Origin: Escherichia phage Eps7
Reading direction: 5' to 3' (one strand)
Length of the DNA: 64,000 bases
Sequence record: NC_010583.1
Numbering within the stretch: position 1 is the first letter of the stretch; each line of letters opens with the position of its first letter. Positions 9,757-30,575 of this stretch are shown one piece after another. The notes beneath the pieces were generated by a model. The model was given only the letters and a program-made list of their open reading frames with translations, searched no databases and was not told the DNA's origin. Made by a program: the position numbers and the translations under genes.

Positions 9757-9786
9757 GTTGACATCCGCCTTCGAATGAGTTATAAT
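9757..9786 (+). promoter_or_regulatory. sigma70 promoter TTGACA-18-TATAAT for nrdD
   Basis: TTGACATCCGCCTTCGAATGAGTTATAAT, then GAGAAGGAGGG RBS. Confidence 0.6.
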
Positions 9787-9815
9787 AGTAGTCTTAGTTA
9801 GAGAAGGAGGGTATA

Positions 9816-11690
9816 ATGAATCGCAATGAAGAACTAAAATATAAAGGAATGCAGTCCTTAATTCGAAACTGCAAAGAAATTATCGAAGGTTCAGCAGATG
9901 AAGAGCTGCTGTTTAATAATGCCAATAAACCCTCAGAACGTTTCCCTACACAAAGGGATATGCTTGCAGGGGAATTGAGTAAATATCTGATTCTGGAAGA
10001 AATGCCAATACAGATTCGAAATGCTCACATGATTGGTGATATTCACTTCCATGATGCTGATTACGCTGCGTTAGGTATGACTAACTGTTGCCTGGTTGCT
10101 TTGGAAGATATGTTGAAGAATGGTATGAAGGTTGGTAATGCTGAAATCAGTACACCAAACTCTATTACTACTGCGGCTGCTATTACAGCTCAGATTATCA
10201 CTCAAGTTAGCTCCCATCAGTATGGTGGTACTTCTGTAGACCGATTAGATGAAGTATTGGCTCCTTATGTTCGTAAGTCTTACGATAAGAATCATGCGTT
10301 TGCAAAGCGTTGGACTAAGGATGAAGCCAAAGCATCTGTAATGGCTACGGAAATGACTGAGAAAGAAGTGTACGATGCCTGTCAAGGTCTAGAATATGAA
10401 ATCAATACGATGTTCAACTCTAATGGTCAGAGTCCATTTATTACCTTTGGGTTTGGTCTAGGAACTTCTTGGGAAGCACGTCTTGTACAGAAAGCAATCC
10501 TAGAAGTGCGTATGGATGGTTTGGGTATCAATAAACGTACTGCTATCTTCCCTAAACTGGTATTTGTTCTGCGAGATGGCGTAAACATGAAGCCTGGAGA
10601 TGTCAACTACGATATCAAGAAGTTGGCTATGAAGTGTACTGCCGAACGTATGTATCCTGACTATATCAGCTATGATAAGGTTGTAGAAGTTACGGGAGAC
10701 TACAAAGTCTCTATGGGCTGTCGTTCATTCCTGGCTGCTGCGGAAGATGGTGAAACTTCTGGTCGTAACAACTTAGGCGTTGTTTCCGTAAACCTTCCTC
10801 GAATCGCTATCGAAGCGGAAGGAAATATTGATCTATTCTTCGATCTGCTTGAGCTGCGTGTGGATACCGCGTTAAAAGCATTGGAGTGGAGAGTTGATCG
10901 CTTAAAATACATTCAAGCTAACGCTGCGCCCATCCTCTATATGTCAGGAGCCTTTGGATTACGTCTGGGGCCAGATGAATATGTATTTGATCATTTCTAC
11001 AAGCGTGCTTCTGTATCCCTAGGATATATTGGCTGCCACGAAATGTTGCAGCTCATGTTTGGTAAAGATGTTGATACAATGTCTGAGTCTTGTATCAAGT
11101 TCGTTCAACGTGTGTTACAATACATGCGTGATCGTGCTGATCAGAAGAAGGAAGAGACTCAATTAGGGTATAGTCTGTATGCTACACCATCTGAATCTCT
11201 ATGTGATCGCTTCTGTCGTCTAGATCGTGAGTATTTCCCAGAGCATGAAGATATTCTGGCTAAAGGATATTACACTAACTCTCATCACCTTGATGTGGAG
11301 CGTAAGGTTGCTCCAAATGTGAAGTTTGATTATGAGTCTAACTTTACTCCTATTGCTTCTGGTGGGTGCATTTCCTATGTGGAATTACCCGATATGAAAC
11401 GATTCCCAGATGCGCTGGAATGGGTTATTAACTATGCTGCAAGTAAGGTTCATTACTTCGGTATTAATACTCCAGTAGACTCCTGTGGGGAATGTGGGTT
11501 CTTGGGTGAGACTATAGCTTCTGAGGATGGTTTCAAATGCCCTATTTGTGGCAACCATGACCCTGAGACTCTTGAGGTAACTCGTCGAGTTTGTGGATAT
11601 CTTGGAAATCCAGGTGCTCGTCCGTTTAACCCAGGCAAACAGCATGAGGTAATGGGTCGAGTGAAACATCAGGACATTCGCGCTAAATAA
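9816..11690 (+). CDS. nrdD: anaerobic ribonucleoside-triphosphate reductase (class III, glycyl-radical enzyme)
   Basis: C-terminal Zn ribbon CGECGF..CPICG and glycyl-radical motif RVCGYLGNP; 624 aa. Confidence 0.95.
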   Translation: MNRNEELKYKGMQSLIRNCKEIIEGSADEELLFNNANKPSERFPTQRDMLAGELSKYLILEEMPIQIRNAHMIGDIHFHDADYAALGMTNCCLVALEDMLKNGMKVGNAEISTPNSITTAAAITAQIITQVSSHQYGGTSVDRLDEVLAPYVRKSYDKNHAFAKRWTKDEAKASVMATEMTEKEVYDACQGLEYEINTMFNSNGQSPFITFGFGLGTSWEARLVQKAILEVRMDGLGINKRTAIFPKLVFVLRDGVNMKPGDVNYDIKKLAMKCTAERMYPDYISYDKVVEVTGDYKVSMGCRSFLAAAEDGETSGRNNLGVVSVNLPRIAIEAEGNIDLFFDLLELRVDTALKALEWRVDRLKYIQANAAPILYMSGAFGLRLGPDEYVFDHFYKRASVSLGYIGCHEMLQLMFGKDVDTMSESCIKFVQRVLQYMRDRADQKKEETQLGYSLYATPSESLCDRFCRLDREYFPEHEDILAKGYYTNSHHLDVERKVAPNVKFDYESNFTPIASGGCISYVELPDMKRFPDALEWVINYAASKVHYFGINTPVDSCGECGFLGETIASEDGFKCPICGNHDPETLEVTRRVCGYLGNPGARPFNPGKQHEVMGRVKHQDIRAK

Positions 11691-11695
11691 TGAAT

Positions 11696-11729
11696 CAGCC
11701 AGATCGCTAGTCGATCTGGCTTTTATTTT
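11696..11729 (+). terminator. rho-independent terminator
   Basis: GCCAGATCG-CTAG-TCGATCTGGC followed by TTTTATTTT. Confidence 0.7.
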
Positions 11730-11731
11730 AT

Positions 11732-11760
11732 TTGCTTTCGAGCTAAAACTTATGTATAAT
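11732..11760 (+). promoter_or_regulatory. T5-type promoter TTGCTT-17-TATAAT with downstream TGATTTATAAATTTGAGAGGAG box
   Basis: sequence match to the promoter family recurring on this strand. Confidence 0.65.
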
Positions 11761-11789
11761 TGATTTATAAATTTGAGAGGAGAAAGACT

Positions 11790-12071
11790 ATGAGCAAATT
11801 GCTTCCGAAAGTAGATGTTTCCCATCTTGGAGAGCCTAGTGAAGAACGTAAGGCTCTTGATTGGCTAGGTGGATTTGATTATCGTCGTGTTGTTGCAACA
11901 TGGAATACTGGTAAGGTTAAAAAATTTCGTGTGCATTATGTTGGCAAAGATAAGTGGCTCTGGATCGATTATGAAGAATCGAAGGGATCTACTAAGGCTG
12001 TAAAAGTCTATCGTATGAATGGGTATTATTATGCTCATTGTGATAAGAATGAATTTACAGTACAGAACTAA
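11790..12071 (+). CDS. hypothetical protein (93 aa from ATG 11790)
   Basis: GAGAGGAGAAAGACT-ATG RBS; the track ORF extends to 11760. Confidence 0.5.
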   Translation: MSKLLPKVDVSHLGEPSEERKALDWLGGFDYRRVVATWNTGKVKKFRVHYVGKDKWLWIDYEESKGSTKAVKVYRMNGYYYAHCDKNEFTVQN

Positions 12072-12080
12072 GGAACAAGA

Positions 12081-12284
12081 ATGAAGAACGTAAGACATCT
12101 TAAATATCGCTTAATTTACAACGGACGTATGGAAACAGAAGATCTAGCTCAGCTAGCGATCAATTCAGATGAAGTTACGGTTCGTGCTTTATCTATTGAG
12201 AAGCTGCGTGCTTCTTACGAAAATCGTATTATGGAACTGGAGGAGAAACTGTATGGACTTCTTGAATCAGAATCTAAAAAATAA
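12081..12284 (+). CDS. hypothetical protein (67 aa)
   Basis: AAGGAACAAGA-ATG RBS. Confidence 0.45.
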   Translation: MKNVRHLKYRLIYNGRMETEDLAQLAINSDEVTVRALSIEKLRASYENRIMELEEKLYGLLESESKK

Positions 12285-12447
12285 TCTAGAAAACATGCTT
12301 ATGGAGCAGTGGAACTCTGGGTATAATGCTGGGGTGGCTACTTGTATTGCGGGGTTGGATATGCTTATTAAGCAAGAAAAGGTACGTCCAGAAGAAGCAA
12401 TTCTACTCCAAAATATCATCGAAGGATTCAAGCAAGGAATCGTATAA
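12253..12447 (+). CDS. hypothetical protein (64 aa)
   Basis: GGAGGAG RBS 7 nt upstream of ATG 12253; overlaps previous ORF. Confidence 0.4.
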   Translation: MDFLNQNLKNNLENMLMEQWNSGYNAGVATCIAGLDMLIKQEKVRPEEAILLQNIIEGFKQGIV

Positions 12448-13261: not shown

Positions 13262-13401
13262 TCTTTTAGTGTGGCCGGATGGTAGTTGGTGCTACCGTTT
13301 CGAATTTGCTACCGATGATTTCTCATGGAAGAGTGATGATTTCTGTGTTATCTATGAAGATACAGCAGAATGGAAAGAGTTCCTTATTAAGGAGGGAGAA
13401 T

Positions 13402-13587
13402 ATGGTGAAGAAGATTTTTAAGGGTATCTGGAAAGGTCTAGTATGGTTTGTCAACCTAATCGGTATGATTACCATTTATTCTCTGTTCCTATCTGTTATG
13501 TGGGGTAAAGGTGAATTGAAGGTTCCAGTTCCTTTTACTGATGAAGTTAAAGTCTGGACGTGGGATGCTACTGGTGGAAATAAGTAA
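13402..13587 (+). CDS. small membrane protein (61 aa)
   Basis: AAGGAGGGAGAAT-ATG RBS; hydrophobic segment GLVWFVNLIGMITIYSLFLSVMW. Confidence 0.4.
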   Translation: MVKKIFKGIWKGLVWFVNLIGMITIYSLFLSVMWGKGELKVPVPFTDEVKVWTWDATGGNK

Positions 13588-14080: not shown

Positions 14081-14082
14081 AT

Positions 14083-14511: not shown

Positions 14512-14520
14512 GGAGGCAGA

Positions 14521-14916: not shown

Positions 14917-14939
14917 TTTTCATTAGTCCAATCCTGATT

Positions 14940-14967
14940 ACCGAGTCATTTTGGCTCGGTTTTCTCT
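14940..14967 (+). terminator. rho-independent terminator
   Basis: ACCGAG-TCATTTTGG-CTCGGT followed by TTTCTCT. Confidence 0.6.
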
Positions 14968-15010
14968 GTGCTCAAAGACACTGATAGCACCTTACGGAAA
15001 AATTTTACTT

Positions 15011-15038
15011 GCAGGATGGTCAAAATCTTGATATAATA
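15011..15038 (+). promoter_or_regulatory. T5-type promoter with extended -10 (TGATATAAT) and downstream ATTTATATTGAATTGAGAGAC box
   Basis: sequence match to the promoter family; no ORF follows for ~500 nt. Confidence 0.6.
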
Positions 15039-15533
15039 TTTATATTGAATTGAGAGACATTAGTAAAAATTGATTTTGCTAATTTTTCTTGTTTACAATC
15101 CGCAATACGGAACAGTTAGGCTGCCCCATTAAGGGTTGTTTTAACTATTACTAGTGTTTATACTGCATTAGTTAATTATCAATTAAGTGATCTGCGTACC
15201 CTGAATTCGGAAAGGTAAATCCAAACCGTGCATATTTAGCTCGTTATATAGGCAGAGCTTTATATGGGGGTGCGAACGAAAAGAGCAGCGAATGGTGACA
15301 CGTCCAGTAGCCACCTACCAATAGGATAGTGAGGGCAATCAGAATCGGCTTAGCGGCCAATGACCTAGGTTCTGATCTGGATAAGAGTTAAGAGAGCGCA
15401 GCACTGAGGTATGATAACTTATTCATACTGCTTGATGATGATTAATGTTTGTGTAAATGGTAGTAATAGTTGTTCTATTCTTTTGAATAGTCCTAAAGAA
15501 AGATATTCGAATAACCAACATAGGAGTATTGTT

Positions 15534-18323
15534 GTGTTCTCAATCCTACAAGGTCACGCAGGATTTTCCAGAGATAAAGCTACTGGCATCTGGAAAGAGA
15601 TCAAAGTGGAAGATTACACCTTTGCAAAGCGATTCTCTAAAGAGCATCCAGAAGGTAAACCAGCTTCCATGCCCTTCAAATTTGATGTACTTGAAGAACT
15701 TGACCCGCAAAACCTTGCTGAAATGTTACCTATCATGCGTCGTCTTACCAAAGACCCGCATATTGTAGCTATTCGTGGTAAATGTTTAGCCCCAAAAGAT
15801 AATGTGCGTCGTACCAGGGGAAACTTTAACGTATCCAATCCTAGTCATATTATTGCTATGGACGTGGATGGTATTGTAGATACTGGTGGCTATGACAAGT
15901 TTAATCTTGTTGGCATGGCACGTCATATTATTAAGATGTTGAATAGTATTAGTGAGGATATGTTTCCTCTTGATGCAGGGTTTATTGCCCATGCATCGTC
16001 TTCGGCTGGATTAAAACCAGGTATCCGAATGCACTTAATGCTAGAATCTAATGTCAAGGTAACGCAGGGACAGTTAAAGTTCTTATTTACATCTATCAAT
16101 GATAGTAGTAAGCAAAAGTACGGCTTTGATATTGCTGACTTAGCTTATTATTCTTCTGTTCAGCTTCACTATTTCGCAGATCCCTTATTTGATGATGGTA
16201 TAGTCGATCCGTTTAAAGCGGAGAATAAACCACGTCTTGTGTATGTTAAGGGTTCGAAGGTAAATCTACCTAATAACCTAGTTGACTTTGAAACAACTAG
16301 AGGTGAGTTTAAAGAAGAGTTCTACTCCTTACTTGACCAAATTAAAGGCAAGAAGGCTGCATCTGATAAAGTGGAAGAAACCATCAGCGAACTAGAAGAA
16401 GCTGAGGATGGAGTGTACCTGCGTATTATTCCAAAACTTTATCACAGAGCGTTAGAAGATGGTGTTGACTTTACGTGGTTAGAACGTGAAATTAAACCAG
16501 CTTTATCTGAGTATATTGCGACTAAAGATAATAGTCGTAATATTCAAGATTACTTTAATAACGGTCGTAAGCAGGCTCTCAAAGCCTTTGTAAATAACTC
16601 CAAACGTGAGATTCCACCAAACTTAAAAGGTGTACCATTAAAACGTCTAGACACAGATTCTCCACCAGAAGTTCCATACCTGAAAATTAACATTGTACCA
16701 CCAAAAGGACATTTAACATTTGTTAAGGCAAGTCTTGGTACGGGTAAAACTACCGCAGTAACTAAGTGGCTAGATGCAGGTGTTCTTCCAGGAAACTTTA
16801 TTGCAATCACAAATACTAGGGCACTTGTATCTTCTAACGCGAAGAAATTCGGTGCTGGCCAGTATGATAAGTCAGTTGATATGCTGAACTTCAAACGTGG
16901 TGCCATTGATCGTATGTCTTCAACTATTCACTCTATCCATAAGTTCAAGAGCTTTGTGGGTCAGATTGATACGATCTTTATTGATGAATGTGACGCAGTA
17001 ATGAATGATCTGTTATTCGCTCCGGTTGTTAAAAACCGTCGTGAATGTATTCAGGTTCTTCGTGATATCCTTATTACTGCTAAAACTGTTATCTTATCCG
17101 ATGGTGATATCAGTGCAGAAACGATTGAAGCCTATGGTTCTTTGATTGATTTTGATAAACCAGTCGCATTTTATAATCACCACCGTAAAATGCTGGCGAA
17201 AGCTCATGCTTATGAATTCCCTGATGAATCCAGTATTTGGGTTGCACTTCAAACATCTTTAGAGATGGGGGAGAAATCAATCCTAGTATCTGACTGTGGC
17301 CCGGATGAACTGAATGAGAAGGGAATGGCATTACGTCGTAATACTGGTGCGTTAGTTAAAGAAATTCACTCAAACTCTACGTCTGATGTAGATATCCGAC
17401 GTATTCTGGATTATACAACTAATGAGCTAATTGATCAACAGATTGATTGTTTATTATGTAGTCCATCTGTAACGAGTGGTGTTGACTTTAACTATTTTGA
17501 TAACGTATTCGTAATCACTAGAACCTCAAACCAAGCGCCAAACATGCGTTTTCAAGCAATCAGGCGCGACCGTGGTGCTCAGAACATTTATTATTTTATT
17601 GATAAATCTACGAGTGGATTTTCTGCGGGTTCCGAGCAATATAATATTGACGAAGGTTGGATTGAGTTAGCCCAACAACTGTACGCACGTCGTCGTGAGC
17701 TGGAATCTAGAAACTATACCAGTACTTTGCGGTATTATCTTCTCGATCAAGGTGCAACTATTGATATTTTCAGTGAAAGCTGGGGAACTATCGAAGGTGC
17801 AGGCAAAGAGTATACAGAAGAGCGAATCAAAGCTATTTTGCACTCAACTCCTGAATATTGCGCACCACGTCATGCAGACGCATATGAAGCTAAATTGCTT
17901 CTGGTTCGCTATTATCATCTGGATTCTATCAAAGATGTAACAGTGGAACATGTTGAACAGTATATCAAGGATAAACCGAATGATCGAGCTGCATTTTTCC
18001 ACAAGATGCACGACATGTTCTGGGAAGATATTAAAAAGTGTTCAAACGTAACAATCAAACCGTTTATCGAAGCTCTTAAGAATAAGAAGAAGGATTTCTT
18101 CCTTAAGACAGGTCAGAGCGCTAACCCAAAATATGCTCGTATGTATCTTGGCATGATGGGTATCGGTAAAGATCTGGATACGGAAAAGATTGTGGACTGG
18201 TACAGAACTTACTGTAAGATCGAATGTATGCCGATTCCAGTTAAGTTTATGACAGACGAAGAACGTCAGATGCACGAGGAAGCTCTTGCTGAATTGGGAG
18301 CTAGAAATGACAGTGAAGAATAA
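15534..18323 (+). CDS. replication helicase (SF2 ATPase) with an N-terminal primase-polymerase-like domain
   Basis: Walker A ASLGTGKTT, DExD box FIDECD, motif VI QAIRRDRGAQ, N-terminal AMDVDG; likely start GTG 15534 with AGGAG RBS (track ORF starts 15411). Confidence 0.75.
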   Translation: MFSILQGHAGFSRDKATGIWKEIKVEDYTFAKRFSKEHPEGKPASMPFKFDVLEELDPQNLAEMLPIMRRLTKDPHIVAIRGKCLAPKDNVRRTRGNFNVSNPSHIIAMDVDGIVDTGGYDKFNLVGMARHIIKMLNSISEDMFPLDAGFIAHASSSAGLKPGIRMHLMLESNVKVTQGQLKFLFTSINDSSKQKYGFDIADLAYYSSVQLHYFADPLFDDGIVDPFKAENKPRLVYVKGSKVNLPNNLVDFETTRGEFKEEFYSLLDQIKGKKAASDKVEETISELEEAEDGVYLRIIPKLYHRALEDGVDFTWLEREIKPALSEYIATKDNSRNIQDYFNNGRKQALKAFVNNSKREIPPNLKGVPLKRLDTDSPPEVPYLKINIVPPKGHLTFVKASLGTGKTTAVTKWLDAGVLPGNFIAITNTRALVSSNAKKFGAGQYDKSVDMLNFKRGAIDRMSSTIHSIHKFKSFVGQIDTIFIDECDAVMNDLLFAPVVKNRRECIQVLRDILITAKTVILSDGDISAETIEAYGSLIDFDKPVAFYNHHRKMLAKAHAYEFPDESSIWVALQTSLEMGEKSILVSDCGPDELNEKGMALRRNTGALVKEIHSNSTSDVDIRRILDYTTNELIDQQIDCLLCSPSVTSGVDFNYFDNVFVITRTSNQAPNMRFQAIRRDRGAQNIYYFIDKSTSGFSAGSEQYNIDEGWIELAQQLYARRRELESRNYTSTLRYYLLDQGATIDIFSESWGTIEGAGKEYTEERIKAILHSTPEYCAPRHADAYEAKLLLVRYYHLDSIKDVTVEHVEQYIKDKPNDRAAFFHKMHDMFWEDIKKCSNVTIKPFIEALKNKKKDFFLKTGQSANPKYARMYLGMMGIGKDLDTEKIVDWYRTYCKIECMPIPVKFMTDEERQMHEEALAELGARNDSEE

Positions 18324-18540
18324 AAAGTGGGAAACAAGGAAGTTTCCAGTAAAAGAACGTAAAACTTCTGTTTACGATACTGCGGAGAAACTATGTAGGG
18401 TTGTACCACCTCGTCTCGCTGGCATCCCTAATGTCTCCATATGGTTACTTAAACAACGGAAGACTCGTGTGTCTCTTCGCATTGGCTTTGAGTTAGATAA
18501 AGTCTATGCTGAACTTGCTTCTTTGCTCAAAGAATCATAA
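18307..18540 (+). CDS. hypothetical basic protein (~77 aa)
   Basis: small ORF overlapping the helicase 3' end. Confidence 0.35.
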   Translation: MTVKNKKWETRKFPVKERKTSVYDTAEKLCRVVPPRLAGIPNVSIWLLKQRKTRVSLRIGFELDKVYAELASLLKES

Positions 18541-18549
18541 AAATTTTAT

Positions 18550-18578
18550 TTGCTTTCAGGAAAAATTTTCTGTATAAT
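18550..18578 (+). promoter_or_regulatory. T5 PN25-type strong early promoter
   Basis: ATTTGCTTTCAGGAAAAATTTTCTGTATAATAGATTCATAAATTTGAGAGAGGAGTT matches the PN25 sequence as I recall it. Confidence 0.85.
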
Positions 18579-18609
18579 AGATTCATAAATTTGAGAGAGG
18601 AGTTTAAAT

Positions 18610-19314
18610 ATGGCTGGTTCTCGTAGAAAGAAACTTATCCATGAAATCCCTGATGAAACCTTTAAAAAGGTTATTGAACATCTGGAGAATGGTGGTACTA
18701 AGAAAGCAGCCTGTGAGATGCTCGGTGTTTCTTCTAACCCAACTATGGAACGAATGATCGAGGAATGGAGAGATCGTCAGGTTCAAGTTGCGGAAATGAA
18801 AAAGAAGAAGCGCGGAACACTAATTGAAGGTGTTGAGCTTGCAAACGTAATTGAACAGTATCTTTCTGGTGATTCTTTTGAAGAAATCGCAGATCGTAAC
18901 TATCGTTCTGTAGCGATGATTAAATCTGTTCTGGAACGTTATGGTGCTCTGCTTCGTTTAAACGATATTGTTGATCCATTGAATCCTCCATTGATTCCTG
19001 ATGATGCAATGGCAGAAGAATTTGAAGTTGGCGAACTTGTTTGGGTTCCCGGCTACCAGTGTATTGGTGAAATCAAGAAAGCAATGACTAACCCAGTTGG
19101 CTGCTACCGTGTTTGGTTGTTATCAGAAGGTAAACAACAGAACGTTCACTATATGCACTACGAATTAGCTTCTGTTAAACATCTGGAAAAGCTGGGAGTT
19201 GATGTTAAAGCTCTGGGCTTTAAATGGAGCCGTGAAGAAGTTATCACGTTGGTTAATGAAGCTGTTAAAGCCGCCCTGAAACTCGATAAAGAGAAAGGAA
19301 AACGTCGTGAGTAA
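18610..19314 (+). CDS. putative HTH DNA-binding protein
   Basis: N-terminal HTH-like GGTKKAACEMLGVS; 234 aa, directly downstream of the PN25-like promoter. Confidence 0.55.
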   Translation: MAGSRRKKLIHEIPDETFKKVIEHLENGGTKKAACEMLGVSSNPTMERMIEEWRDRQVQVAEMKKKKRGTLIEGVELANVIEQYLSGDSFEEIADRNYRSVAMIKSVLERYGALLRLNDIVDPLNPPLIPDDAMAEEFEVGELVWVPGYQCIGEIKKAMTNPVGCYRVWLLSEGKQQNVHYMHYELASVKHLEKLGVDVKALGFKWSREEVITLVNEAVKAALKLDKEKGKRRE

Positions 19315-19540
19315 ACTAACTGATCTGTTAAAAGCTGGAGACGTGAAATATCTCCAGCGAGATAGCTGGAAGAACACCCGAGACTTTACATTCTTGTTAA
19401 AATTTGATGTAGATAGTGACACTGTTAAGCTATATGAGTGGCCTAGTATACACTGCGTACGCCCGATAGTAACAGTAGTTAATCTTAGTCTAGAAGAAGC
19501 TCTGGCCGACGATTGGGAGATCGTTGAACTAGATGTGTAG
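19307..19540 (+). CDS. hypothetical protein (77 aa)
   Basis: overlaps the preceding stop. Confidence 0.4.
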   Translation: MSKLTDLLKAGDVKYLQRDSWKNTRDFTFLLKFDVDSDTVKLYEWPSIHCVRPIVTVVNLSLEEALADDWEIVELDV

Positions 19541-19560
19541 CAGTTACTGAAAAATTTCAG

Positions 19561-19589
19561 TTGCTTAATCCTGTAATTCTTGATATAAT
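19561..19589 (+). promoter_or_regulatory. sigma70 promoter TTGCTT-17-TATAAT
   Basis: TTGCTTAATCCTGTAATTCTTGATATAAT. Confidence 0.6.
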
Positions 19590-19647
19590 ATTCTCATAGT
19601 TTGAAAGAACTATTCTGTTTAATTCTTAATTAAGGAAATCGAAAAAT

Positions 19648-20058
19648 ATGACTACTCCAACTCAGTGGACTGATGAACTGTTCGAAAAAATGTCTTCCGA
19701 CTACGTTGCTCGTATGGAGCAATTCCCAGAAGATGAGCGTCCGGGCGTTAGCATGGAAATTGTTAGCGAAATTGCTCAGGAAAATGGTGTAACTCCGAAC
19801 GGTTTCCGTATGAAGCTGACCAAAGCAGGTCTGTATATCAAGAAAGCTGCTGGCTCTACTTCTAAATCAAGCGCATCTACTGGAGAAAAAGCTTCTGGTG
19901 GTTCTCGTACTTCCAAAGCTCAGGCGCACTCCGATCTTCGCTCTGCATTCTCTGATGCTGGCTTAGCACCGGACTTCCTGGACGACGCAATCATCGACAA
20001 GCTGACCGGTAAAGCAGCTGCTCATCTGGCAGAAGCTATCCGAGCTATCACTAAGTAA
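19648..20058 (+). CDS. hypothetical protein (136 aa), probably highly expressed
   Basis: strongly E. coli-optimal codon usage. Confidence 0.55.
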   Translation: MTTPTQWTDELFEKMSSDYVARMEQFPEDERPGVSMEIVSEIAQENGVTPNGFRMKLTKAGLYIKKAAGSTSKSSASTGEKASGGSRTSKAQAHSDLRSAFSDAGLAPDFLDDAIIDKLTGKAAAHLAEAIRAITK

Positions 20059-20094
20059 TTCTTAGATAAATCCACCAACACAAGGAATACAGTT

Positions 20095-20391
20095 ATGAAT
20101 AAAGCTGAAATTATTGCTCAATGCGAAAAATTTGGTGAGTTTTATCTTCATTACGAAAAACTTCGTCAGAAAGGAACCACGTACCTTCAGGGTACGATGG
20201 AGTTTGATCCAGCTCAGGATAAATACCTGGCTGAGCGTATTAAACGTGAGCGCATCCGTAAGCCGAAAGAAGATGAAATCCTAGTTTTCTCTCGTACTAA
20301 CGATAGCTTCCGTTTCATTCCTGTTGTGAAAGTTCGCCGTGTGACGAGCCTCCAGTCAGAGTTAGATCGTGCTTCTCCAGTAGGCCGATAA
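20095..20391 (+). CDS. hypothetical protein (98 aa)
   Basis: ORF followed by terminator. Confidence 0.5.
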   Translation: MNKAEIIAQCEKFGEFYLHYEKLRQKGTTYLQGTMEFDPAQDKYLAERIKRERIRKPKEDEILVFSRTNDSFRFIPVVKVRRVTSLQSELDRASPVGR

Positions 20392-20401
20392 GAAACCAAT
20401 T

Positions 20402-20423
20402 AGCCCCTATATGGGGCTTTTTG
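20402..20423 (+). terminator. rho-independent terminator
   Basis: GCCCC-TATAT-GGGGC followed by TTTTTG. Confidence 0.7.
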
Positions 20424-20441
20424 TGTATTTGGGATATGTAA

Positions 20442-20750
20442 ATGAGCGATCAGGTAAATCAAAACTATGAAGGACACATTGACGACCAGTCCATCATGCT
20501 TTGGGAGAAGGACGGGGAACAAGTAAGACTAACCGTATCTGAATTTCGTGGGAATCTATACATGGGAATTCGTTACTGGCTCCAAGATATTACTGGAGAG
20601 TGGTTTCCAACGAAATCCGGCTTCTCTTTTCCTTATACCCTAGAAACTACATCACAGCTATTTTACGCTTTTACGCAAATCCTCAGTGAATCCGAGGTCT
20701 TGCATGAAGTACAGAAACGAGCTGAAGAACTCAAAGCCAAGAATGCCTAG
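20442..20750 (+). CDS. hypothetical protein (102 aa)
   Basis: ORF between terminator and next promoter. Confidence 0.5.
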   Translation: MSDQVNQNYEGHIDDQSIMLWEKDGEQVRLTVSEFRGNLYMGIRYWLQDITGEWFPTKSGFSFPYTLETTSQLFYAFTQILSESEVLHEVQKRAEELKAKNA

Positions 20751-20777
20751 TTCTTGGCTTTTTCTTTATAAATGTAC

Positions 20778-20806
20778 TTGCTTTCGACTCAGTTTTGTTA
20801 TATAAT
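20778..20806 (+). promoter_or_regulatory. T5-type promoter TTGCTT-17-TATAAT with downstream ATTTATATAAATTGATGAGAGA box
   Basis: sequence match to the promoter family. Confidence 0.65.
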
Positions 20807-20837
20807 ATTTATATAAATTGATGAGAGATATAAATAA

Positions 20838-21809
20838 ATGACTAATGTAAAAGAATTTATTAAACGCTGTCAAGAAGCATATTATCAAGGTATGTCTTTA
20901 ATCTCTGACGAAGAATATGATCGTCTGATTAAAAGATTCCCACTAGAGGAAGAAATCGGACCGAAAGGTGATATTCCTCATTTGTATCGTATGTATTCTT
21001 TGCAGAAAGTCTATTACGGTCGCGGTGATAAAGCTCCATTCAATCCATTAGGTCAGGTTGAAACTGATAAGTTAGATGGTTGTGCGATTTCTCTATTATA
21101 TATTAATGGTGAATTTGTTCAAGCGTTAACTCGTGGTAACGGTATTCTAGGGAATGATGTAACGCATAATGTTAAAATGCTGAACATCCCCAAAACTATT
21201 TCCCAAAAAGTACCAACTCAAATCACTGGTGAAGTTCTCATTACTAAAGAAGTAGAGAACAAACGTAACTACGCTTCGGGTGCTATTAACCTGAAAGACA
21301 GCGATGATTTCATCCAACGTATTGGTGAAGGTGGTTTAATCTTCGTTGCATACGGTATCCAGTGTTCAGCGGAAACAGTCGGTATTACAGAAGCCTATTT
21401 AAAAGATATGCTTTGGCTAGAGAATGAGAACTTCTTGACAGTTGTTAATGTTCGTTCCTTTTTTAAATGGATTCCGACGGACGGTAAAGTTGTTCGTATT
21501 AACGACAACAATAAATTCTTCCGTGAAGGTTGGACTAATAAATTTCCTCGTGGTGCATTTGCTATTAAAGAGGATGAAGAAGGCGAAATTACCACACTTG
21601 TTAAAGTTGAATGGCAAGTAGGGGCTTCTGGTAAAGTAACTCCAGTTGGTTATTTCGAACCGGTGATTATTGATGATGCCACAATCGTTAAAGCAACTCT
21701 TAATAACGTTGATTATATTAACGCTCTCGATTTAGAGATCGGTTGCCAGATTCGAGTGATTCGTGCTGGTGGTGTAATCCCTTGTATAGTAGAGCGAGTA
21801 TACGACTAA
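20838..21809 (+). CDS. ligA: NAD-dependent DNA ligase, subunit A (adenylation domain)
   Basis: EYDRL N-terminal motif, KLDG adenylation lysine, TRGNG motif; 323 aa. Confidence 0.9.
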   Translation: MTNVKEFIKRCQEAYYQGMSLISDEEYDRLIKRFPLEEEIGPKGDIPHLYRMYSLQKVYYGRGDKAPFNPLGQVETDKLDGCAISLLYINGEFVQALTRGNGILGNDVTHNVKMLNIPKTISQKVPTQITGEVLITKEVENKRNYASGAINLKDSDDFIQRIGEGGLIFVAYGIQCSAETVGITEAYLKDMLWLENENFLTVVNVRSFFKWIPTDGKVVRINDNNKFFREGWTNKFPRGAFAIKEDEEGEITTLVKVEWQVGASGKVTPVGYFEPVIIDDATIVKATLNNVDYINALDLEIGCQIRVIRAGGVIPCIVERVYD

Positions 21810-21862
21810 TTCGTAACCCTTTGCTACCCGTTTACCATGTCGGAATTATAAAGTGGTTATTG

Positions 21863-21891
21863 ACATTTTCGCCGCTTAGGTATATACTATT
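21863..21891 (+). promoter_or_regulatory. sigma70 promoter TTGACA-17-TATACT
   Basis: in the spacer between the two ligase halves. Confidence 0.5.
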
Positions 21892-21953
21892 ATCATTCAG
21901 TTGAGGGATAGAAAGTTATGGCGAGGGTAAGCAAAGTTAGTTAAAATTGTAGT

Positions 21954-21981
21954 TGCTAAATGCTTAAATACTTGCTATAAT
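21954..21981 (+). promoter_or_regulatory. T5-type promoter with downstream ATTTATATAAATTGATAAGGAAG box
   Basis: TTGCTA-16-TATAAT. Confidence 0.6.
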
Positions 21982-22008
21982 ATTTATATAAATTGATAAG
22001 GAAGAAAT

Positions 22009-23599: not shown

Positions 23600-23620
23600 G
23601 CATTTAGAAGGCACGAAAGC

Positions 23621-25105: not shown

Positions 25106-25992
25106 GTAGAATAACAGAACTACTTGATCTGAAAGGCATTGAATACAAAGACACAGGTGGGGATATCCTCATCTGTTGTCTCAATCCAGATCATGATGAT
25201 AAACACCCAAGCTTGCGTATTGACCCTGAATCAGGTATTATGCATTGCTTGAGCTGTGGCTTCGGTAGAGGAATACCGAGCATTTACCATTATTTTAATG
25301 AGACTCAGTACAGACAGTCACCAAGATTGTCACAAGTACGTAAAAAGATTTCAGAGATTAGGAATGGATCTACGAATCTTGCAATTCCTGAATCTGCTTA
25401 CCTTTTCGAAGGTGATTTCCGAGGTATCAGTTCTAAGACCTTGAAGAAATATTTTGCTTTCCAACATCAAGCAGACTGGGAAGGCAGAATTGTATTCCCA
25501 ATAACAGATGCTGTTGGACGCAATATCCTATTCTTGGGACGTTCTATAAACAGTTCTGCCCCTCCTAAATACTTAGTAAAACCAAAACAAGTTTCACCAC
25601 CGATTTTCCCTGTACGATATAATACACCAGTTCTTATTCTAGTTGAAGGTATCTTTGATATGTTAAATCTAGAAGATAACGGTGTGGATTATGCTTCTTG
25701 CTGCTTTGGTACACATCAGTTTACATCTGATAACATTGCCGATAAGTTCAGTCCTTACATTATTGCTGGAGTAAGAGTAGTAGTTATCCTATTAGATAAT
25801 GATGCCTCTGGTAATAAAGCTGCGCAAGCATTGGCGAAGCTAATTCGTACAAAAACACGTTTAACACCTGTAATTGGTAACTTCCTTCTTCCAGAAGGCA
25901 AAGACCCAGGTGATTTAAATAAAGAAGAGATCGATATGTTGGCTCAACGTATTGAAATTTTAGTTGCCGAATCGCTCAAAGATTTGGTATAA
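25102..25992 (+). CDS. DNA primase (DnaG-like: zinc-binding domain plus TOPRIM)
   Basis: CLNPDHDDKHPSL..HCLSCGFG Zn motif; TOPRIM LVEGIFD and LLDNDASG. Confidence 0.85.
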   Translation: MSRITELLDLKGIEYKDTGGDILICCLNPDHDDKHPSLRIDPESGIMHCLSCGFGRGIPSIYHYFNETQYRQSPRLSQVRKKISEIRNGSTNLAIPESAYLFEGDFRGISSKTLKKYFAFQHQADWEGRIVFPITDAVGRNILFLGRSINSSAPPKYLVKPKQVSPPIFPVRYNTPVLILVEGIFDMLNLEDNGVDYASCCFGTHQFTSDNIADKFSPYIIAGVRVVVILLDNDASGNKAAQALAKLIRTKTRLTPVIGNFLLPEGKDPGDLNKEEIDMLAQRIEILVAESLKDLV

Positions 25993-25993
25993 T
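25985..25993 (+). promoter_or_regulatory. extended -10 element (TGGTATAAT) upstream of the polymerase gene
   Basis: lies inside the primase 3' end. Confidence 0.35.
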
Positions 25994-26054
25994 ATATTGG
26001 TAAGTTAGAGAAGAAACACTGAAGTTATACTTACTTACCAAAAGAAGACTAAAT

Positions 26055-28622
26055 TTGAAAATTGCAGTAGTTGATAAAGCTCTAAATAACACTCGTTATG
26101 ATAAACACTTCCAGCTTTATGGTGAGGAAGTTGATGTATTCCATATGTGTAACGAGAAGTTATCTGGCCGTTTGCTGAAAAAGCATATTACAATCGGAAC
26201 TCCAGATAACCCGTTCGATCCGAACGATTACGATTTTGTTGTACTAGTTGGTGCTGAACCTTTCCTGTATTTCGCAGGTAAGAAAGGTATCGGTGATTAT
26301 ACTGGTAAACGTGTAGAGCATGGCGGCTATGCCAATTGGATTGCAAGTATTAGTCCAGCTCAGTTACACTTTAAACCTGAAATGAAACCAGTTTTCGATG
26401 CAACTGTAGAAAGTATTCACGATATTATTAATGGTCGTGAGAAGATTGCAAAAGCTGGTGATTATCGTCCTATTACTGATCCAGATGAAGCTGAAGAATA
26501 CATCAAGATGGTATATAACATGGTTATCGGTCCTATCGCATTCGACTCCGAAACCTCAGCTTTGTACGCTCGTGATGGTTATCTGCTTGGTGTTTCTATG
26601 TCTCACCAAGAGTACCAGGGTGTTTATATTGACTCTGACAGCATCACCGAAGTAGCTGTACATTATCTCCAGAAAATTCTGGATAGCAAGAATCATCAGA
26701 TCGTTTTTCATAACTTGAAGTTTGATATGCACTTTTATTCCTATCATCTAGGACTTTCCTTTGAGAAAGCACATAAAGAGCGTAGACTTCACGATACCAT
26801 GTTACAACACTATGTTCTTGATGAACGTCGTGGTACTCACGGCCTGAAATCTCTGGCTATGAAGTATACTGACATGGGTGATTATGACTTTGAACTGGAT
26901 AAGTTCAAGGAGGATTATTGCAAAGCACATAAGATCAAGAAAGAAGATTTCAGCTATGATCTGATTCCATTTGATATTATGTGGCCTTATGCTGCAAAAG
27001 ATACCGATGCTACTCTGCGTCTGCATAACTTCTTCTTACCGAAAATTGAGAAGAATGAAAAGCTTTGCAGTCTATACTATGACGTTCTGATGCCTGGTTG
27101 TGTATTCTTGCAACGTGTTGAAGATCGTGGTGTACCAATTTCTGTTGATCGCTTGAAAGAAGCTCAGTATCAGTTAACTCACAACCTGAACAAGGCTCGT
27201 GAAAAGCTGTATACTTATCCAGAAGTCGTTCAGCTAGAGAAAGACCAGAACGAAGCATTTAACCCTAACTCTGTTAAGCAGCTCCGTGTTCTTTTATTTG
27301 ATTATGTTGGTCTGACTCCAACTGGTAAGCTGACAGATACAGGTGCAGATTCTACAAACGCAGAAGCTCTGAACGAACTGGCTACTCAGCATCCAATTGC
27401 TAAGACTCTGCTAGAGATTCGTAAGCTGACTAAGCTGATCTCTACTTATGTTGAGAAGATTCTTCTGAGCATTGATGCAGATGGTTGCATTCGTACTGGT
27501 TTCCATGAACACATGACTACTTCTGGTCGTCTGAGTTCTTCTGGTAAGCTGAACCTGCAACAGTTACCACGTGATGAATCTATTATCAAGGGTTGTGTAG
27601 TAGCTCCCCCTGGATATCGTGTAATCGCATGGGACTTAACAACTGCGGAAGTTTATTACGCTGCTGTACTGTCTGGTGACAGAAACATGCAACAAGTATT
27701 TATCAACATGAAGAATGAGCCAGATAAATATCCTGACTTCCACTCAAACATCGCACACATGGTATTTAAACTGACCTGTGAACCGCGTGATGTTAAGAAG
27801 TTGTTCCCAGCTCTGCGTCAGGCTGCTAAGGCAATTACCTTCGGTATTCTGTACGGTTCTGGCCCAGCTAAAGTAGCTCATTCTGTTAACGAAGCTCTTC
27901 TGGAACAGGCCGCTAAGACAGGCGAACCGTTTGTTGAATGTACCGTTGCAGATGCGAAGGACTATATCGAAACTTACTTCGGTCAATTCCCTCAGCTTAA
28001 GCGTTGGATTGATAAGTGCCACGATCAGATCAAGAACTTTGGATTCATCTACAGTCACTTTGGTCGTAAGCGTCGTCTGCACAATATCCATTCTGAAGAT
28101 CGTGGTGTTCAGGGTGAGGAAATCCGTTCTGGATTTAACGCAATCATTCAGTCTGCATCTTCGGATAGCCTGTTATTAGGTGCTATTGATGCTGATGAAG
28201 AAATCCTGTCCCTGGGTCTAGGAAAAGAGATGAAGATCGTCATGTTGGTTCACGACTCCGTGGTTGCCATTGTACGTGAAGATCTGATTGATCAGTATAA
28301 TGAGATTCTGATTCGTAACATCCAGAAGGATCGTGGTATTAGTATCCCTGGCTGCCCAATCGGTATTGATTCTGATTCTGAGAAAGGTGGTTCTCGTGAC
28401 TACTCTTGTGGTAAGATGAAGAAACAGCACCCATCAATCGCTTGTATTGATGATGATGAGTATACTCGTTATGTTAAAGGTGTATTACTCGATGCAGATT
28501 TCGAGTATAAGAAGTTAGCTGCAATGGATAAAGAGCATCCAGACCACAGCAAATACAAGGATGATAAGTTTATTGCTGTATGTAAAGATCTGGATAATGT
28601 GAAAAGGATTTTAGGTGCTTGA
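26055..28622 (+). CDS. DNA polymerase, family A with 3'-5' exonuclease domain (T5-type, 855 aa)
   Basis: TTG start; exo motifs IAFDSETS, Pol A motifs; length and N-terminus match T5 polymerase as I recall it. Confidence 0.97.
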   Translation: MKIAVVDKALNNTRYDKHFQLYGEEVDVFHMCNEKLSGRLLKKHITIGTPDNPFDPNDYDFVVLVGAEPFLYFAGKKGIGDYTGKRVEHGGYANWIASISPAQLHFKPEMKPVFDATVESIHDIINGREKIAKAGDYRPITDPDEAEEYIKMVYNMVIGPIAFDSETSALYARDGYLLGVSMSHQEYQGVYIDSDSITEVAVHYLQKILDSKNHQIVFHNLKFDMHFYSYHLGLSFEKAHKERRLHDTMLQHYVLDERRGTHGLKSLAMKYTDMGDYDFELDKFKEDYCKAHKIKKEDFSYDLIPFDIMWPYAAKDTDATLRLHNFFLPKIEKNEKLCSLYYDVLMPGCVFLQRVEDRGVPISVDRLKEAQYQLTHNLNKAREKLYTYPEVVQLEKDQNEAFNPNSVKQLRVLLFDYVGLTPTGKLTDTGADSTNAEALNELATQHPIAKTLLEIRKLTKLISTYVEKILLSIDADGCIRTGFHEHMTTSGRLSSSGKLNLQQLPRDESIIKGCVVAPPGYRVIAWDLTTAEVYYAAVLSGDRNMQQVFINMKNEPDKYPDFHSNIAHMVFKLTCEPRDVKKLFPALRQAAKAITFGILYGSGPAKVAHSVNEALLEQAAKTGEPFVECTVADAKDYIETYFGQFPQLKRWIDKCHDQIKNFGFIYSHFGRKRRLHNIHSEDRGVQGEEIRSGFNAIIQSASSDSLLLGAIDADEEILSLGLGKEMKIVMLVHDSVVAIVREDLIDQYNEILIRNIQKDRGISIPGCPIGIDSDSEKGGSRDYSCGKMKKQHPSIACIDDDEYTRYVKGVLLDADFEYKKLAAMDKEHPDHSKYKDDKFIAVCKDLDNVKRILGA

Positions 28623-29112
28623 TTTCAAATTGCCCGTATATGCTTTACGGGCATTTGTATCAATTGAGCAGGAAGGTGATTATTCCGTAATTACAACAAA
28701 ATATAATAAATATGTGCTAGATAACAGGAAGTTGCCCGGCACATTCTCCCAACGTAGGTTAGCCCTATTTGAGAAGCGGAAAGAATTACCGTATAAGCTC
28801 TATCCTATTCGTGGTAGAATATCAATGTTGTCCCAATTAGTAGGGTCAAAGCGTAGCCAGTTTATAGATTCTGATGGAAATCTTATTAACTGGAAGAAAA
28901 CTACGTTCTATGATGTTATCACATCTAAAGTTCTGCATTCTGCAAGAATTTATAATGGAAAGTATCAATGTTATGTGGCTAAAGTCCCATATCCATTCGT
29001 GCTATCCTATGTTCCAGCTTATATAAGCTATATTCTGGTAAATAATAGCCCTGTTATTTATCAAGTCCATCAAGAGGAGCCTGAAATTCCTAGACTTAGA
29101 ATAAAATTATGA
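28615..29112 (+). CDS. hypothetical protein (165 aa)
   Basis: ORF coupled between the polymerase and helicase genes. Confidence 0.5.
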   Translation: MLDFKLPVYALRAFVSIEQEGDYSVITTKYNKYVLDNRKLPGTFSQRRLALFEKRKELPYKLYPIRGRISMLSQLVGSKRSQFIDSDGNLINWKKTTFYDVITSKVLHSARIYNGKYQCYVAKVPYPFVLSYVPAYISYILVNNSPVIYQVHQEEPEIPRLRIKL

Positions 29113-30461
29113 AGGTTGTTATATCTAATAAAGCCTATTTCAAGCCCGATGATGAACTCTGGGATTACTGTAGTAAGCAAACCACTTATCACATCGAGAC
29201 AATGACTAGTAAATACCCTATTATGTATAAGAATAGTGGTGTTGTTGCTAAAGAGATTAAGTGGATTCCTATTACGCGTCTGGATTTACTAGATGCTAAG
29301 GGAGTAAAGTACGAATTAGTTGATAAACGTACGTTAGCTCCGGTAGAAATACCAGAACCTCAGTTCAAACTGCGTGAAGAAGATCAGCTTCCTATATATG
29401 AAGAGTGTGATGATACTTGTATTATCAATGGTAAGCCTGGGTTTGGTAAAACTATCCTAGCTCTTGCTCTTGCATATAAGTTTGGCCAGAAAACTCTGGT
29501 AATCTGCACCAACACATCCATTCGTGAAATGTGGGCTGCAGAAGTTCGTAAATGGTTTGGGTTTGAACCTGGTATTATTGGCTCTGGGAAGTATAATATT
29601 GATCCACCAATCGTGGTCAGTAATATACAAACAGTGAATAAACATGCGAATAATCTTTCTAAAGTGTTCGGTACTGTTATAGTTGATGAAGTACACCACT
29701 GTGTGGCTACAACTTTCACTAATTTCCTAGAGATCTCATGTGCTCACTATAAGATTGGTCTATCTGGTACGTTAAAGCGTAAGGATGGCCTGCAAGTTAT
29801 GTTCAAAGACTTCTTCGGATATAAGATCTTTAGTCCACCCGTTAATAATACTGTTCCACCTACAATCCATAGGTACTCCGTGCCTGTTGAGTTATCAGGT
29901 AACCAAAACGTACCCTGGGCATTACGTGCTAACGATGTGTATAATCATCCTGAATATCGAGAAACTATTATAAACCTAGCGCATTTATATGTGTCTATGG
30001 GACATAAGGTTCTCTTTGTAAGTGATAGGACGGAACTAATCCAAACAATACTAGAAGCTCTCGCACAACGTGGTGTTACAACCTATGAGATTATAGGTGC
30101 AACTCCTTTGGATGATCGATTGAGAATCCAGAAAGATGTAGCGGAGGGCGGACCTTGTGTACTTGCAGCAGCTCAGAGTATCTTCTCAGAAGGTATTTCT
30201 CTTAACGAGCTGTCTTGTTTAATAATGGGAAGTCTCATTAATAATGAATCTCTCATAGAACAGTTAGCAGGCCGCGTTCAACGTATTGTTGACGGAAAGC
30301 TAGATCCGATTGTTGTAGATTTAATTATGAAAGGAGGTACTGGTTTAAGACAGGCTTCTGGACGTATGGCCGTGTATCGCAATAATGCATGGAAAACTAT
30401 TACTATGACTCCGGAGAAAGCAGTACAATTAGCTAAAATTGCATTTGGCAACTGCTCATAA
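29109..30461 (+). CDS. ATP-dependent DNA helicase, SF2 (T5 D10-like)
   Basis: Walker A GKPGFGKT, DEVH box VIVDEVHH; 450 aa. Confidence 0.85.
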   Translation: MKVVISNKAYFKPDDELWDYCSKQTTYHIETMTSKYPIMYKNSGVVAKEIKWIPITRLDLLDAKGVKYELVDKRTLAPVEIPEPQFKLREEDQLPIYEECDDTCIINGKPGFGKTILALALAYKFGQKTLVICTNTSIREMWAAEVRKWFGFEPGIIGSGKYNIDPPIVVSNIQTVNKHANNLSKVFGTVIVDEVHHCVATTFTNFLEISCAHYKIGLSGTLKRKDGLQVMFKDFFGYKIFSPPVNNTVPPTIHRYSVPVELSGNQNVPWALRANDVYNHPEYRETIINLAHLYVSMGHKVLFVSDRTELIQTILEALAQRGVTTYEIIGATPLDDRLRIQKDVAEGGPCVLAAAQSIFSEGISLNELSCLIMGSLINNESLIEQLAGRVQRIVDGKLDPIVVDLIMKGGTGLRQASGRMAVYRNNAWKTITMTPEKAVQLAKIAFGNCS

Positions 30462-30473
30462 TTATTGTATAAT
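30445..30473 (+). promoter_or_regulatory. T5-type promoter TTGGCA-17-TATAAT with downstream ACACATAAATTTGAGAGAGAAAG box
   Basis: first of two tandem promoters. Confidence 0.6.
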
Positions 30474-30545
30474 ATACACATAAATTTGAGAGAGAAAGTT
30501 TCGGATTGATAAGAAAGTCCGAAGCAGAAAAAATAAAAATTGTAC

Positions 30546-30575
30546 TTGTCAAATCCTCCCGATTTAATGTATAAT
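30546..30575 (+). promoter_or_regulatory. T5-type promoter TTGTCA-18-TATAAT with downstream ATACATAAATTGATGAGAGAC box
   Basis: second tandem promoter. Confidence 0.6.

Follow-up and report, generated by a model that had tools for sequence, protein, structure and literature searches.

The promoter family in the Eps7 window

We analysed a 64,000-nucleotide stretch of Escherichia phage Eps7 (NC_010583.1; hereafter the window, in which + or - after a coordinate gives the strand) for a family of promoters that share a conserved "downstream box" after the -10 hexamer. The stretch comes from a T5-like phage of the genus Epseptimavirus, and the family is that of the T5-type strong early promoters. 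A megablast search with positions 17500-21500 matched 460 phage records, all of them T5-like Demerecviridae, with Salmonella phage BSP22A as the best match at 99.7% identity; over the first 35 kb the identity to BSP22A is 94.6-98.5%, with several indels. Positions 9757-30575 carry early replication genes on the plus strand (nrdD, Sir2-like, origin-binding/primase-C-like, D2, D3, ligA, ligB, D5, helicase, primase, polymerase and D10), and the late structural block occupies 36-62.5 kb on the minus strand.

A position weight matrix built from 14 sites and spanning the upstream A-tract to +16 gave 17 matches above 12 bits, the top score among 30 shuffles being 1.9. With spacers of 16-18 bp allowed, the family in the window amounts to 15 strong copies and 1 weak copy of one common architecture. 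The first T of the -10 lies at 1124-, 1475-, 2881-, 5862-, 9542-, 11755+, 15032+, 18573+, 19584+, 20801+, 21976+, 25988+, 30468+, 30570+ and 62597+ in the strong copies and at 8806- in the weak one, and these positions serve as names below. The copies, with the open reading frames (ORFs) that they would serve and their predicted starts (+1), are as follows.

1093..1161, minus strand: early promoter, near-identical ortholog of T5 PH207; -35 TTGCTA 1147-1142, -10 TATAAT 1124-1119, box CATAAATTGA; predicted +1 near 1112-1111; 171-amino-acid ORF (ATG 1080)
1444..1512, minus strand: early promoter, ortholog of a T5 "putative promoter"; TTGCTT-17-TATAAT, -10 at 1475-1470, weaker box ATTGAAAGTGAGGAGG; 92-amino-acid ORF (ATG 1442)
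2850..2918, minus strand: early promoter; TTGCTT-17-TATAAT, -10 at 2881-2876, box CTAATTTGACAGAAGGA; 192-amino-acid ORF (ATG 2845)
5831..5899, minus strand: early promoter with a T5 ortholog; TTGCTA-17-(TGc)TATAAT, -10 at 5862-5857, followed by a purine-rich initial transcribed sequence (ITS); nrdB-like ORF (ATG 5825)
8775..8843, minus strand: weak or possible member; TTGCAT-17-TAGAAT, -10 at 8806-8801, degenerate box; 23.9 bits with a negative downstream part; precedes nrdA-like ORF (ATG 8762)
9511..9579, minus strand: early promoter toward the phoH-like gene; TTGCTT-17-(TGg)TATAAT, -10 at 9542-9537, box ATATTTGTAAGTTGATAAAC, downstream part identical in T5; leader of about 67 nt (ATG 9463)
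11718..11786, plus strand: early promoter after nrdD; TTGCTT 11732-11737, TATAAT 11755-11760, ATAAATTTGAGAGGAG; predicted +1 at 11767; ATG 11790, 23-nt leader
14995..15063, plus strand: early promoter; TTGCAG 15009-15014, (TGa)TATAAT 15032-15037, box ATTTATATTGAATTGAGAGAC; no start codon adjacent, 370-490 nt leader up to the origin-binding/primase-C-like gene
18536..18604, plus strand: PN25 ortholog; TTGCTT 18550-18555, TATAAT 18573-18578, discriminator AGATTC, ITS ATAAATTTGAGAGAGGAGTT; +1 A at 18585 by homology to the PN25 numbering; ATG 18610 (D2 gene)
19547..19615, plus strand: PN26 ortholog; TTGCTT 19561-19566, (TGa)TATAAT 19584-19589, box ATTCTCATAGTTTGAAAGAAC; 52-nt leader to the D3 ATG at 19648
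20764..20832, plus strand: early promoter of ligA; TTGCTT 20778-20783, TATAAT 20801-20806, box ATTTATATAAATTGATGAGAG; ATG 20838, 25-nt leader
21939..22007, plus strand: PK28a ortholog before ligB; TTGCTA 21953-21958, (TGc)TATAAT 21976-21981, box ATTTATATAAATTGATAAGGAAG; ATG 22012
25950..26019, plus strand: polymerase-gene promoter, ortholog of T5 "Ppol"; TTGCCG 25964-25969, 18-bp spacer, (TGg)TATAAT 25988-25993, box ATATTGGTAAGTTAGAGAAG
30431..30499, plus strand: upstream promoter of a tandem pair; TTGGCA 30445-30450, TATAAT 30468-30473, box ATACACATAAATTTGAGAGAGAAAG; no adjacent start codon, 123 nt to ATG 30603
30532..30601, plus strand: downstream promoter of the tandem pair; TTGTCA 30546-30551, 18-bp spacer, TATAAT 30570-30575, box ATATACATAAATTGATGAGAGAC; ATG 30603 (T5p123 homolog)
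62560..62628, plus strand: early promoter of the llp-like receptor-blocking lipoprotein gene; TTGCTT 62574-62579, (TGc)TATAAT 62597-62602, box ATATTTATAAATTAAACAGAGGAAC; ATG 62632

We counted 8 exact copies of TTGCTT-N17-TATAAT in the window, where shuffles predict 0.08; when up to 2 mismatches are allowed, the count is 33 and the expectation 14.7. A scan of the window with the generic TTGACA/TATAAT consensus showed no enrichment (45 found, 52.9 expected). Such a scan thus cannot detect the family, and the enrichment belongs to the family-specific pattern. The -10 is a perfect TATAAT in 15 sites, while 10 have TTGCTT or TTGCTA as the -35 and the remainder a TTGnnn variant. Directly 5' of the -35 stands the consensus ttAAAATTttA, with an information content of 0.8-1.2 bits per position, and by inspection 7 of the 16 copies have an extended -10 (TGn). 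Alignment of the sites on the -10 brings out homology well past the hexamers: an upstream A-tract, "AT" right after TATAAT, ATAAAT(T)TGA and then a run of purines.

A sequence-only reading of the window had listed 11 sites, and when aligned on the -10 all of them proved to be real, being promoter-like and carrying the downstream motif. The reading ascribed TTGCTT to all of them. This holds for six (11732, 18550, 19561, 20778, 62574 and 9537-); the other five have -35 variants, namely TTGCTA (21953 and 1119-), TTGCAG, TTGGCA (30445) and TTGTCA with an 18-bp spacer (30546), and the TTGCAG placed at 15011 begins at 15009 instead. Five members had been missed (1475-, 2881-, 5862-, the weak 8806- and 25988+). 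Its assignment of the family to the plus-strand early block was too narrow, as the minus-strand early block holds six members and a further one stands before the llp-like gene at 62.6 kb.

Sequence and register of the downstream box

The box is the discriminator plus the ITS. In the numbering of T5 promoter PN25, TATAATAGATTCAT spans -12 to +2 (PMC7472727), and by analogy transcription of the other copies would start 7 nt after the -10. On this numbering the box consists of a 6-bp AT-rich discriminator, a start y(-1)-A(+1)-T(+2), and an ITS of A-T-A-A-A-T-T-(T)-G-A plus a purine run. The y-A-T start fits the YRY "start element" (PMC12641261).

The box is tied to the -10. Of the 8 occurrences of its core ATAAAT(T)TGA in 128 kb (the window, both strands), 7 start 6-7 nt after a TATAAT. 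In order to avoid circularity, we then considered sites picked on upstream and -10 features alone. The downstream score was positive in 15 of 16 window sites chosen in this way, the exception being 9678-9706. With an independent downstream matrix trained solely on Klebsiella, Serratia and Vibrio phages, the 15 family sites of the window had a median of about 16 bits compared with a mean of -17 for the other 75 TATAAT hexamers (Mann-Whitney p = 1.4e-9).

The composition of the box was determined from 54 sites in five genomes, likewise picked without downstream information. ATA occupies +1 to +3 in 32 sites, and TTGA lies within +4 to +12 in 30 (background 3.5%), beginning at +6 or +7 in 29 of these 30. 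C makes up at most 9% at each position through +14, and purines 78-96% over +11 to +18. The window copies have a mean of 14.0 purines in +1 to +20 versus a background of 10.0 +/- 2.35.

Two of the 16 window copies, only those with an ATTTAT discriminator, contain the palindrome ATTTATATAAAT; on inspection the other copies are asymmetric. We rejected an operator for a dimeric repressor, since dyad symmetry is not conserved across the copies by inspection of the site lists, with no symmetry statistic applied. A link of the cassettes to the recombination site of the T5 st0 deletion was also discarded, as that 10-bp site is an unrelated sequence. A third candidate, a sigma-70-dependent promoter-proximal pause with TAAATT at +2 to +7 as a -10-like element, was likewise dropped; the N25-related paper on such a pause concerns the artificial N25anti ITS.

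Orthologs in T5 and other phages

The sites of the window pair with T5 counterparts by direct alignment. The T5 st0 record places P-N25 before D2 (there called D3), P-N26 before the next gene, a putative promoter before ligA, and P-K28b and P-K28a before ligB, with further putative promoters after nrdD and before the origin-binding gene, the polymerase gene and T5p123. It also shows P-H207 and others on the minus-strand early block and one promoter before llp. The record of Salmonella phage S114 labels the same sites "P-N-25-like", "P-N-26-like" and "P-K 28a/b-like"; PH207 is annotated in the T5 record only, not in that of S114. These syntenic annotations bear out the earlier assignment to the T5-type strong promoters. 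The PN25, PN26, PK28a and PH207 promoters of T5 (GenBank AY692264) share the architecture, genomic positions and near-identical sequence of their counterparts here, the differences being that Eps7 is an Epseptimavirus and not T5, with small substitutions in the A-tract and spacer. The 18550 copy, which had been called essentially PN25, differs from the annotated T5 promoter by two substitutions, one in the A-tract and the other in the spacer; from the -10 to the end of the start codon there is no difference. The weak site 8806- and the tandem partner 30468 lack annotation in the T5 record.

T5 early promoters have been sequenced, ranked and exploited since the 1980s, with PN25 in use in pQE/pDS-type vectors and tet systems. 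Gentz & Bujard 1985 is said to be the classic source for PN25, PN26, PK28a and PH207. For the T5-like phage AKFV33 a consensus of TTGCTw / 17-18 bp / TATAATA with AAAAATT at -43 and TAAATT at +1 has been published (PMC3326045), and all known T5 early promoters are stated to have ATATT in the discriminator (PMC7472727). These are the same motif in sister phages, with no substantive difference from ours. The family and its downstream homology are thus already known from the literature.

The box is restricted to the early class. It is missing from the T5 late promoters PJ5, PG25 and putative others and from the pre-early promoters PD/E20 and PH22, and it is present in T5 Pllp. When positions 1-46 kb of T5 were scanned, all 16 strong matches fell beyond 16 kb in the early region; the pre-early 1-10 kb/terminal repeat gave no strong match and one weak match at 6075 (18.9 bits). 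The 15 strong members of the window are likewise all confined to early regions, with none in the late block (binomial p = 3e-4).

A useful contrast for class specificity is offered by 45807-45835 (-), an ortholog of the T5 late promoter PG25, in which an A-tract and TTGATA-17-TATAAT are followed by ATTGTTATTAAGAGGAG without the ATAAATTGA box.

The architecture including the box is conserved across phages of different host genera. It is found in Klebsiella phage Spivey and Serratia phage Kamaji (about 68% DNA identity) and in Vibrio phages VPT02 and River4, which belong to another subfamily. In IMG/VR the exact TATAAT-N6-ATAAATTGA is multi-copy almost only in T5-sized contigs of 104-121 kb, and single-copy elsewhere. 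T7 A1 and lambda PL/PR likewise use unmodified host RNA polymerase (RNAP) with near-consensus hexamers, UP-like elements and an ITS that influences escape (PMC12464699), but the ATAAATTGA word is absent from them and they are not a family with about 30 copies in each genome.

In Spivey (32606, 32698 and 32798 of the locus compared) and Kamaji (24821 and 24922 of its locus), two or three family promoters stand in tandem before the homolog of T5p123. The last tandem -10 abuts the annotated ATG in both (Spivey TATAATaatcATG, Kamaji TATAATatATG), too near for a normal leader.

Constraint on the box and its relation to translation

In order to locate the constraint within the cassette, we compared 9 pairs of orthologous T5 and window promoters in a phylogenetic footprint. 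Divergence by segment was as follows.

Upstream flank: 0.24
A-tract: 0.056
-35: 0.056
Spacer: 0.16
-10: 0
Discriminator: 0.019
+1 to +10: 0.044
+11 to +20: 0.144
Beyond +20: 0.117

Positions -6 to +10 are more constrained than the spacer, the flank and everything from +11 onward combined (Fisher p = 2.5e-5). This low divergence defines -6 to +10 as the constrained unit. The part that overlaps the Shine-Dalgarno sequence, +11 to +20, keeps its purine composition only.

The sequence-only reading had suggested that the box merges into the ribosome-binding site and may act as a translation enhancer. On this reading the box would be conserved mainly as an unstructured AU-rich leader (S1-binding or an "epsilon-like" enhancer) fused to the Shine-Dalgarno sequence, with the promoter merely in front. 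Between +1 and the start codon lie 21-25 nt in 8 of the 16 copies, in which the purine run is the Shine-Dalgarno sequence and the AU-rich +1 to +8 would fall at -25 to -17 from the start codon, and 32 nt in 2 more. ATAAATTTGAGA may also loosely resemble the T7 gene 10 leader, TTAACTTTAAGAAGGAG. The merging into the ribosome-binding site stands for the 3' purine run of the short-leader copies, and it does not hold elsewhere. The core keeps its register to the -10 and not to the start codon, whose distance ranges from 21 to about 490 nt: leaders measure about 52-67 nt in the copies 19584, 25988 and 9542, whereas 30468 has 123 nt and 15032 has 370-490 nt. By comparison of scores the box is as strong before long leaders (15032, 30468, 19584, 9542) as before short ones. 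It also precedes products that are not translated in relatives, namely the stable RNA2H gene, which follows T5 P13b (ATAAATTGATGAGGAG) with no start codon, and a tRNA-Thr of Vibrio phage VPT02, which lies 23 nt after a member with ATAAAGTTGAGAAAC. At internal ribosome-binding sites of the window the core was not found, and the footprint shows the Shine-Dalgarno-overlapping +11 to +20 evolving at the background rate while -6 to +10 is constrained. Register, non-translated products, internal ribosome-binding sites and footprint all point to transcription. A translation enhancer is unsupported as the general reason for conservation, and we consider it improbable that the box is kept mainly for translation.

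Promoter escape and alternative explanations

The effect of the transcribed region of PN25 is a textbook model of promoter escape. The second guess of the sequence-only reading, that the box is an RNAP contact, came closer, although the PN25 effect lies in initial transcription and is not a simple contact. What the box does had already been established experimentally for PN25, as an effect of the ITS on escape. According to the accounts in PMC12464699 and PMC5961368, which cite Kammerer et al. 1986, positions +3 to +20 (the "DSR"/ITS) change the amount of productive RNA about 10-fold via promoter escape; PMC5961368 recalls the effect seen by Kammerer et al. as >10-fold in vivo. N25 binds RNAP extremely tightly and escape is rate-limiting, and replacing its +3 to +20 with an "antiDSR" leaves one tenth of the full-length RNA with abortive products greatly increased (PMC12464699). 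The anti-algorithm turns a purine-rich non-template strand pyrimidine-rich, which favours the pre-translocated state and backtracking. Purine content of the ITS correlates with productive yield (PMC5961368), and the discriminator lies in the -5/+2 segment bound by RNAP holoenzyme (PMC7472727). The ITS of the PN25 ortholog at 18585-18604 (ATAAATTTGAGAGAGGAGTT) is the same AT-first, C-free, purine-rich sequence as the N25 DSR/ITS of these escape studies (Kammerer et al. 1986; Hsu laboratory N25/N25anti). That work concerns one promoter; what is added here is that -6 to +10 is a family-wide early-class motif reaching Vibrio T5-like phages, whereas +11 to +20 conserves composition only.

We propose that the family consists of early-class promoters dependent on host sigma-70, one-for-one orthologs of the mapped or annotated early promoters of T5, including those of the polymerase and llp genes. 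Primer extension has shown T5 Ppol to act as an early promoter (PMC7472727). The start position, use by host sigma-70 holoenzyme and early kinetics of the window copies would follow those of PN25. Each cassette of about 70 bp combines an UP-like A-tract around -43, a TTGCTw -35, a 17-18 bp spacer, often an extended -10 TGn and a perfect TATAAT with a 3' half made of the ATwTwy discriminator, the y-A(+1)-T start, A-T-A-A-A-T-T-(T)-G-A and a C-free purine run. Very tight upstream binding would leave these promoters rate-limited at escape, and the AT-rich, C-free, purine-rich start of the transcript would allow quick clearance of RNAP and a high productive output. The purine run doubles, in roughly half of the copies, as the Shine-Dalgarno sequence of a minimal 21-25 nt leader, so that the cassette also supplies a ready-made ribosome-binding site. 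Host-sigma-70 early promoters with a discriminator and ITS optimised for escape are very probably the best explanation of the family. Escape is the best-supported function of the box, resting on the published PN25 experiments and extended by analogy to all copies.

Several points weigh against this explanation. The +1 positions in Eps7 are transferred from PN25, and start, binding and timing are predictions; we found no usable T5 transcription-start-site or transcriptome data in the literature. The escape mechanism is known for PN25 only, whose discriminator AGATTC, with G at -5, is atypical of a family that mostly has ATxTxx. A generic need for a purine-rich, C-free start leaves the ATAAAT and TTGA words, kept from Escherichia to Vibrio phages, unexplained, and the T-G step at +7/+8 resembles a (T/C)G motif reported to slow escape (PMC5961368). 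Where the leader is short, the constraints of transcription and translation are inseparable by sequence alone.

Could the copies instead be alike through recent duplication or recombination of a mobile regulatory cassette, and not through selection on each position? At 11755 the match of the cassette to T5 extends as far as the Shine-Dalgarno sequence, and the genes that follow are unrelated, reminiscent of the promoter-bounded module exchange in T4-type phages. However, spacers and flanks differ wholly between copies, which have only the functional positions in common, and orthologous copies occupy corresponding places in the genomes of T5 and of the Klebsiella, Serratia and Vibrio phages. 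Synteny across such distant genera indicates that the copies are ancient and, together with the unrelated spacers, essentially excludes recent duplication. A further alternative is that the box is an identity tag of the early class, the cis target of a phage factor (of the gpT5.026 type or D5) that turns early transcription down at late onset. The confinement of the box to the early class in T5 and the window would fit such a role, as would the retention of specific words across distant hosts far beyond simple purine richness and the multi-copy occurrence of the exact motif only in viral contigs of roughly 104-121 kb. The gpT5.026 protein binds RNAP and weakens its binding to the -5/+2 non-template segment, and the early-specific ATATT discriminator has been proposed to underlie a differential gpT5.026 effect (PMC7472727). 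On the other hand, gpT5.026 had no strong effect in vitro (PMC7472727), by inspection no dyad symmetry is conserved across the copies, recognition of the box by a factor is hypothetical, and the restriction to one class is accounted for just as well by a need for maximal constitutive strength on unmodified host RNAP in early promoters alone. We regard a factor-binding tag as unlikely, yet a candidate to be kept in mind. Similarly, there is a small chance that the -6 to +10 word (ATwTwy-ATAAATTGA) is, besides its part in escape, a class tag read during initial transcription, through a T-G pause at +7/+8 or by a gpT5.026-type protein. We retain the class-tag reading on account of the exact words conserved, the T-G step and the suggestion made in PMC7472727.

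Neighbouring features

Next to the family the window holds a second promoter type. At 9758-9786 (+), before nrdD, TTGACA-17-TATAAT matches the consensus at 12 of 12 positions, and at 21860-21888 (+), about 90 bp 5' of PK28a, TTGACA-17-TATACT is the ortholog of PK28b; the sequence downstream of both is merely loosely box-like. The sole site with the upstream architecture and without the box is 9678-9706 (-), which stands in tandem 5' of the 9542 promoter in the divergent phoH/nrdD region. Here an A-tract and TTGCCA-17-TATAAT are followed by GC-rich CACGCGCCCGTGTACGCG, and the site is kept in T5.

Hairpins resembling intrinsic terminators at 11697-11721, 14940-14960 and 20733-20761 abut the promoters at 11755, 15032 and 20801 on their 5' side. 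In these terminator-promoter cassettes the T-run of the hairpin continues into the upstream A/T block of the promoter. When 11718-12410 is compared with T5 (2651-3400 of the T5 locus), the promoter is kept to the Shine-Dalgarno sequence and the small genes beyond it are unrelated, which by sequence comparison marks the 11755 cassette as the probable edge of a gene-replacement module.

The promoter at 15032 is followed by a non-coding leader of 370-490 nt (15044-15533), depending on whether the gene starts at ATG 15411, as in the ORF listing, or at about 15534, from which homologs are annotated. Its predicted RNA fold has an energy of -141.5 kcal/mol (z = -4.6), and a 21-nt long-range inverted repeat (15143-15163 / 15451-15471) encloses a core of ~290 nt. 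The same gap between promoter and gene is present in T5, Spivey and Kamaji, and the consensus fold of 4 sequences has some compensatory pairs. Rfam gave no match over the whole window at gathering thresholds, nor over 14950-15600 at E <= 1. The stretch could serve as a structured leader or an origin region, or encode a non-coding RNA.

On the minus strand the nrdA-like gene is divided into two overlapping ORFs (8822-8397 and 8506-7184), and the phoH-like gene has a deletion of ~407 bp relative to BSP22A, with its junction near 9406-9415. These changes (8397-9463) may reflect genuine decay or a frameshift in the source sequence.

Implications

By-products of this analysis are a complete promoter map of the window at the level of coordinates and a measure of evolutionary constraint that falls at -6 to +10 and not in the Shine-Dalgarno-overlapping part. 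Demerecviridae of different host genera keep the same early-class word, and its persistence bears on how T5 switches temporal classes with one host sigma factor. If the word is indeed a class tag, it would let the phage turn down its whole early regulon at the early-to-late switch.

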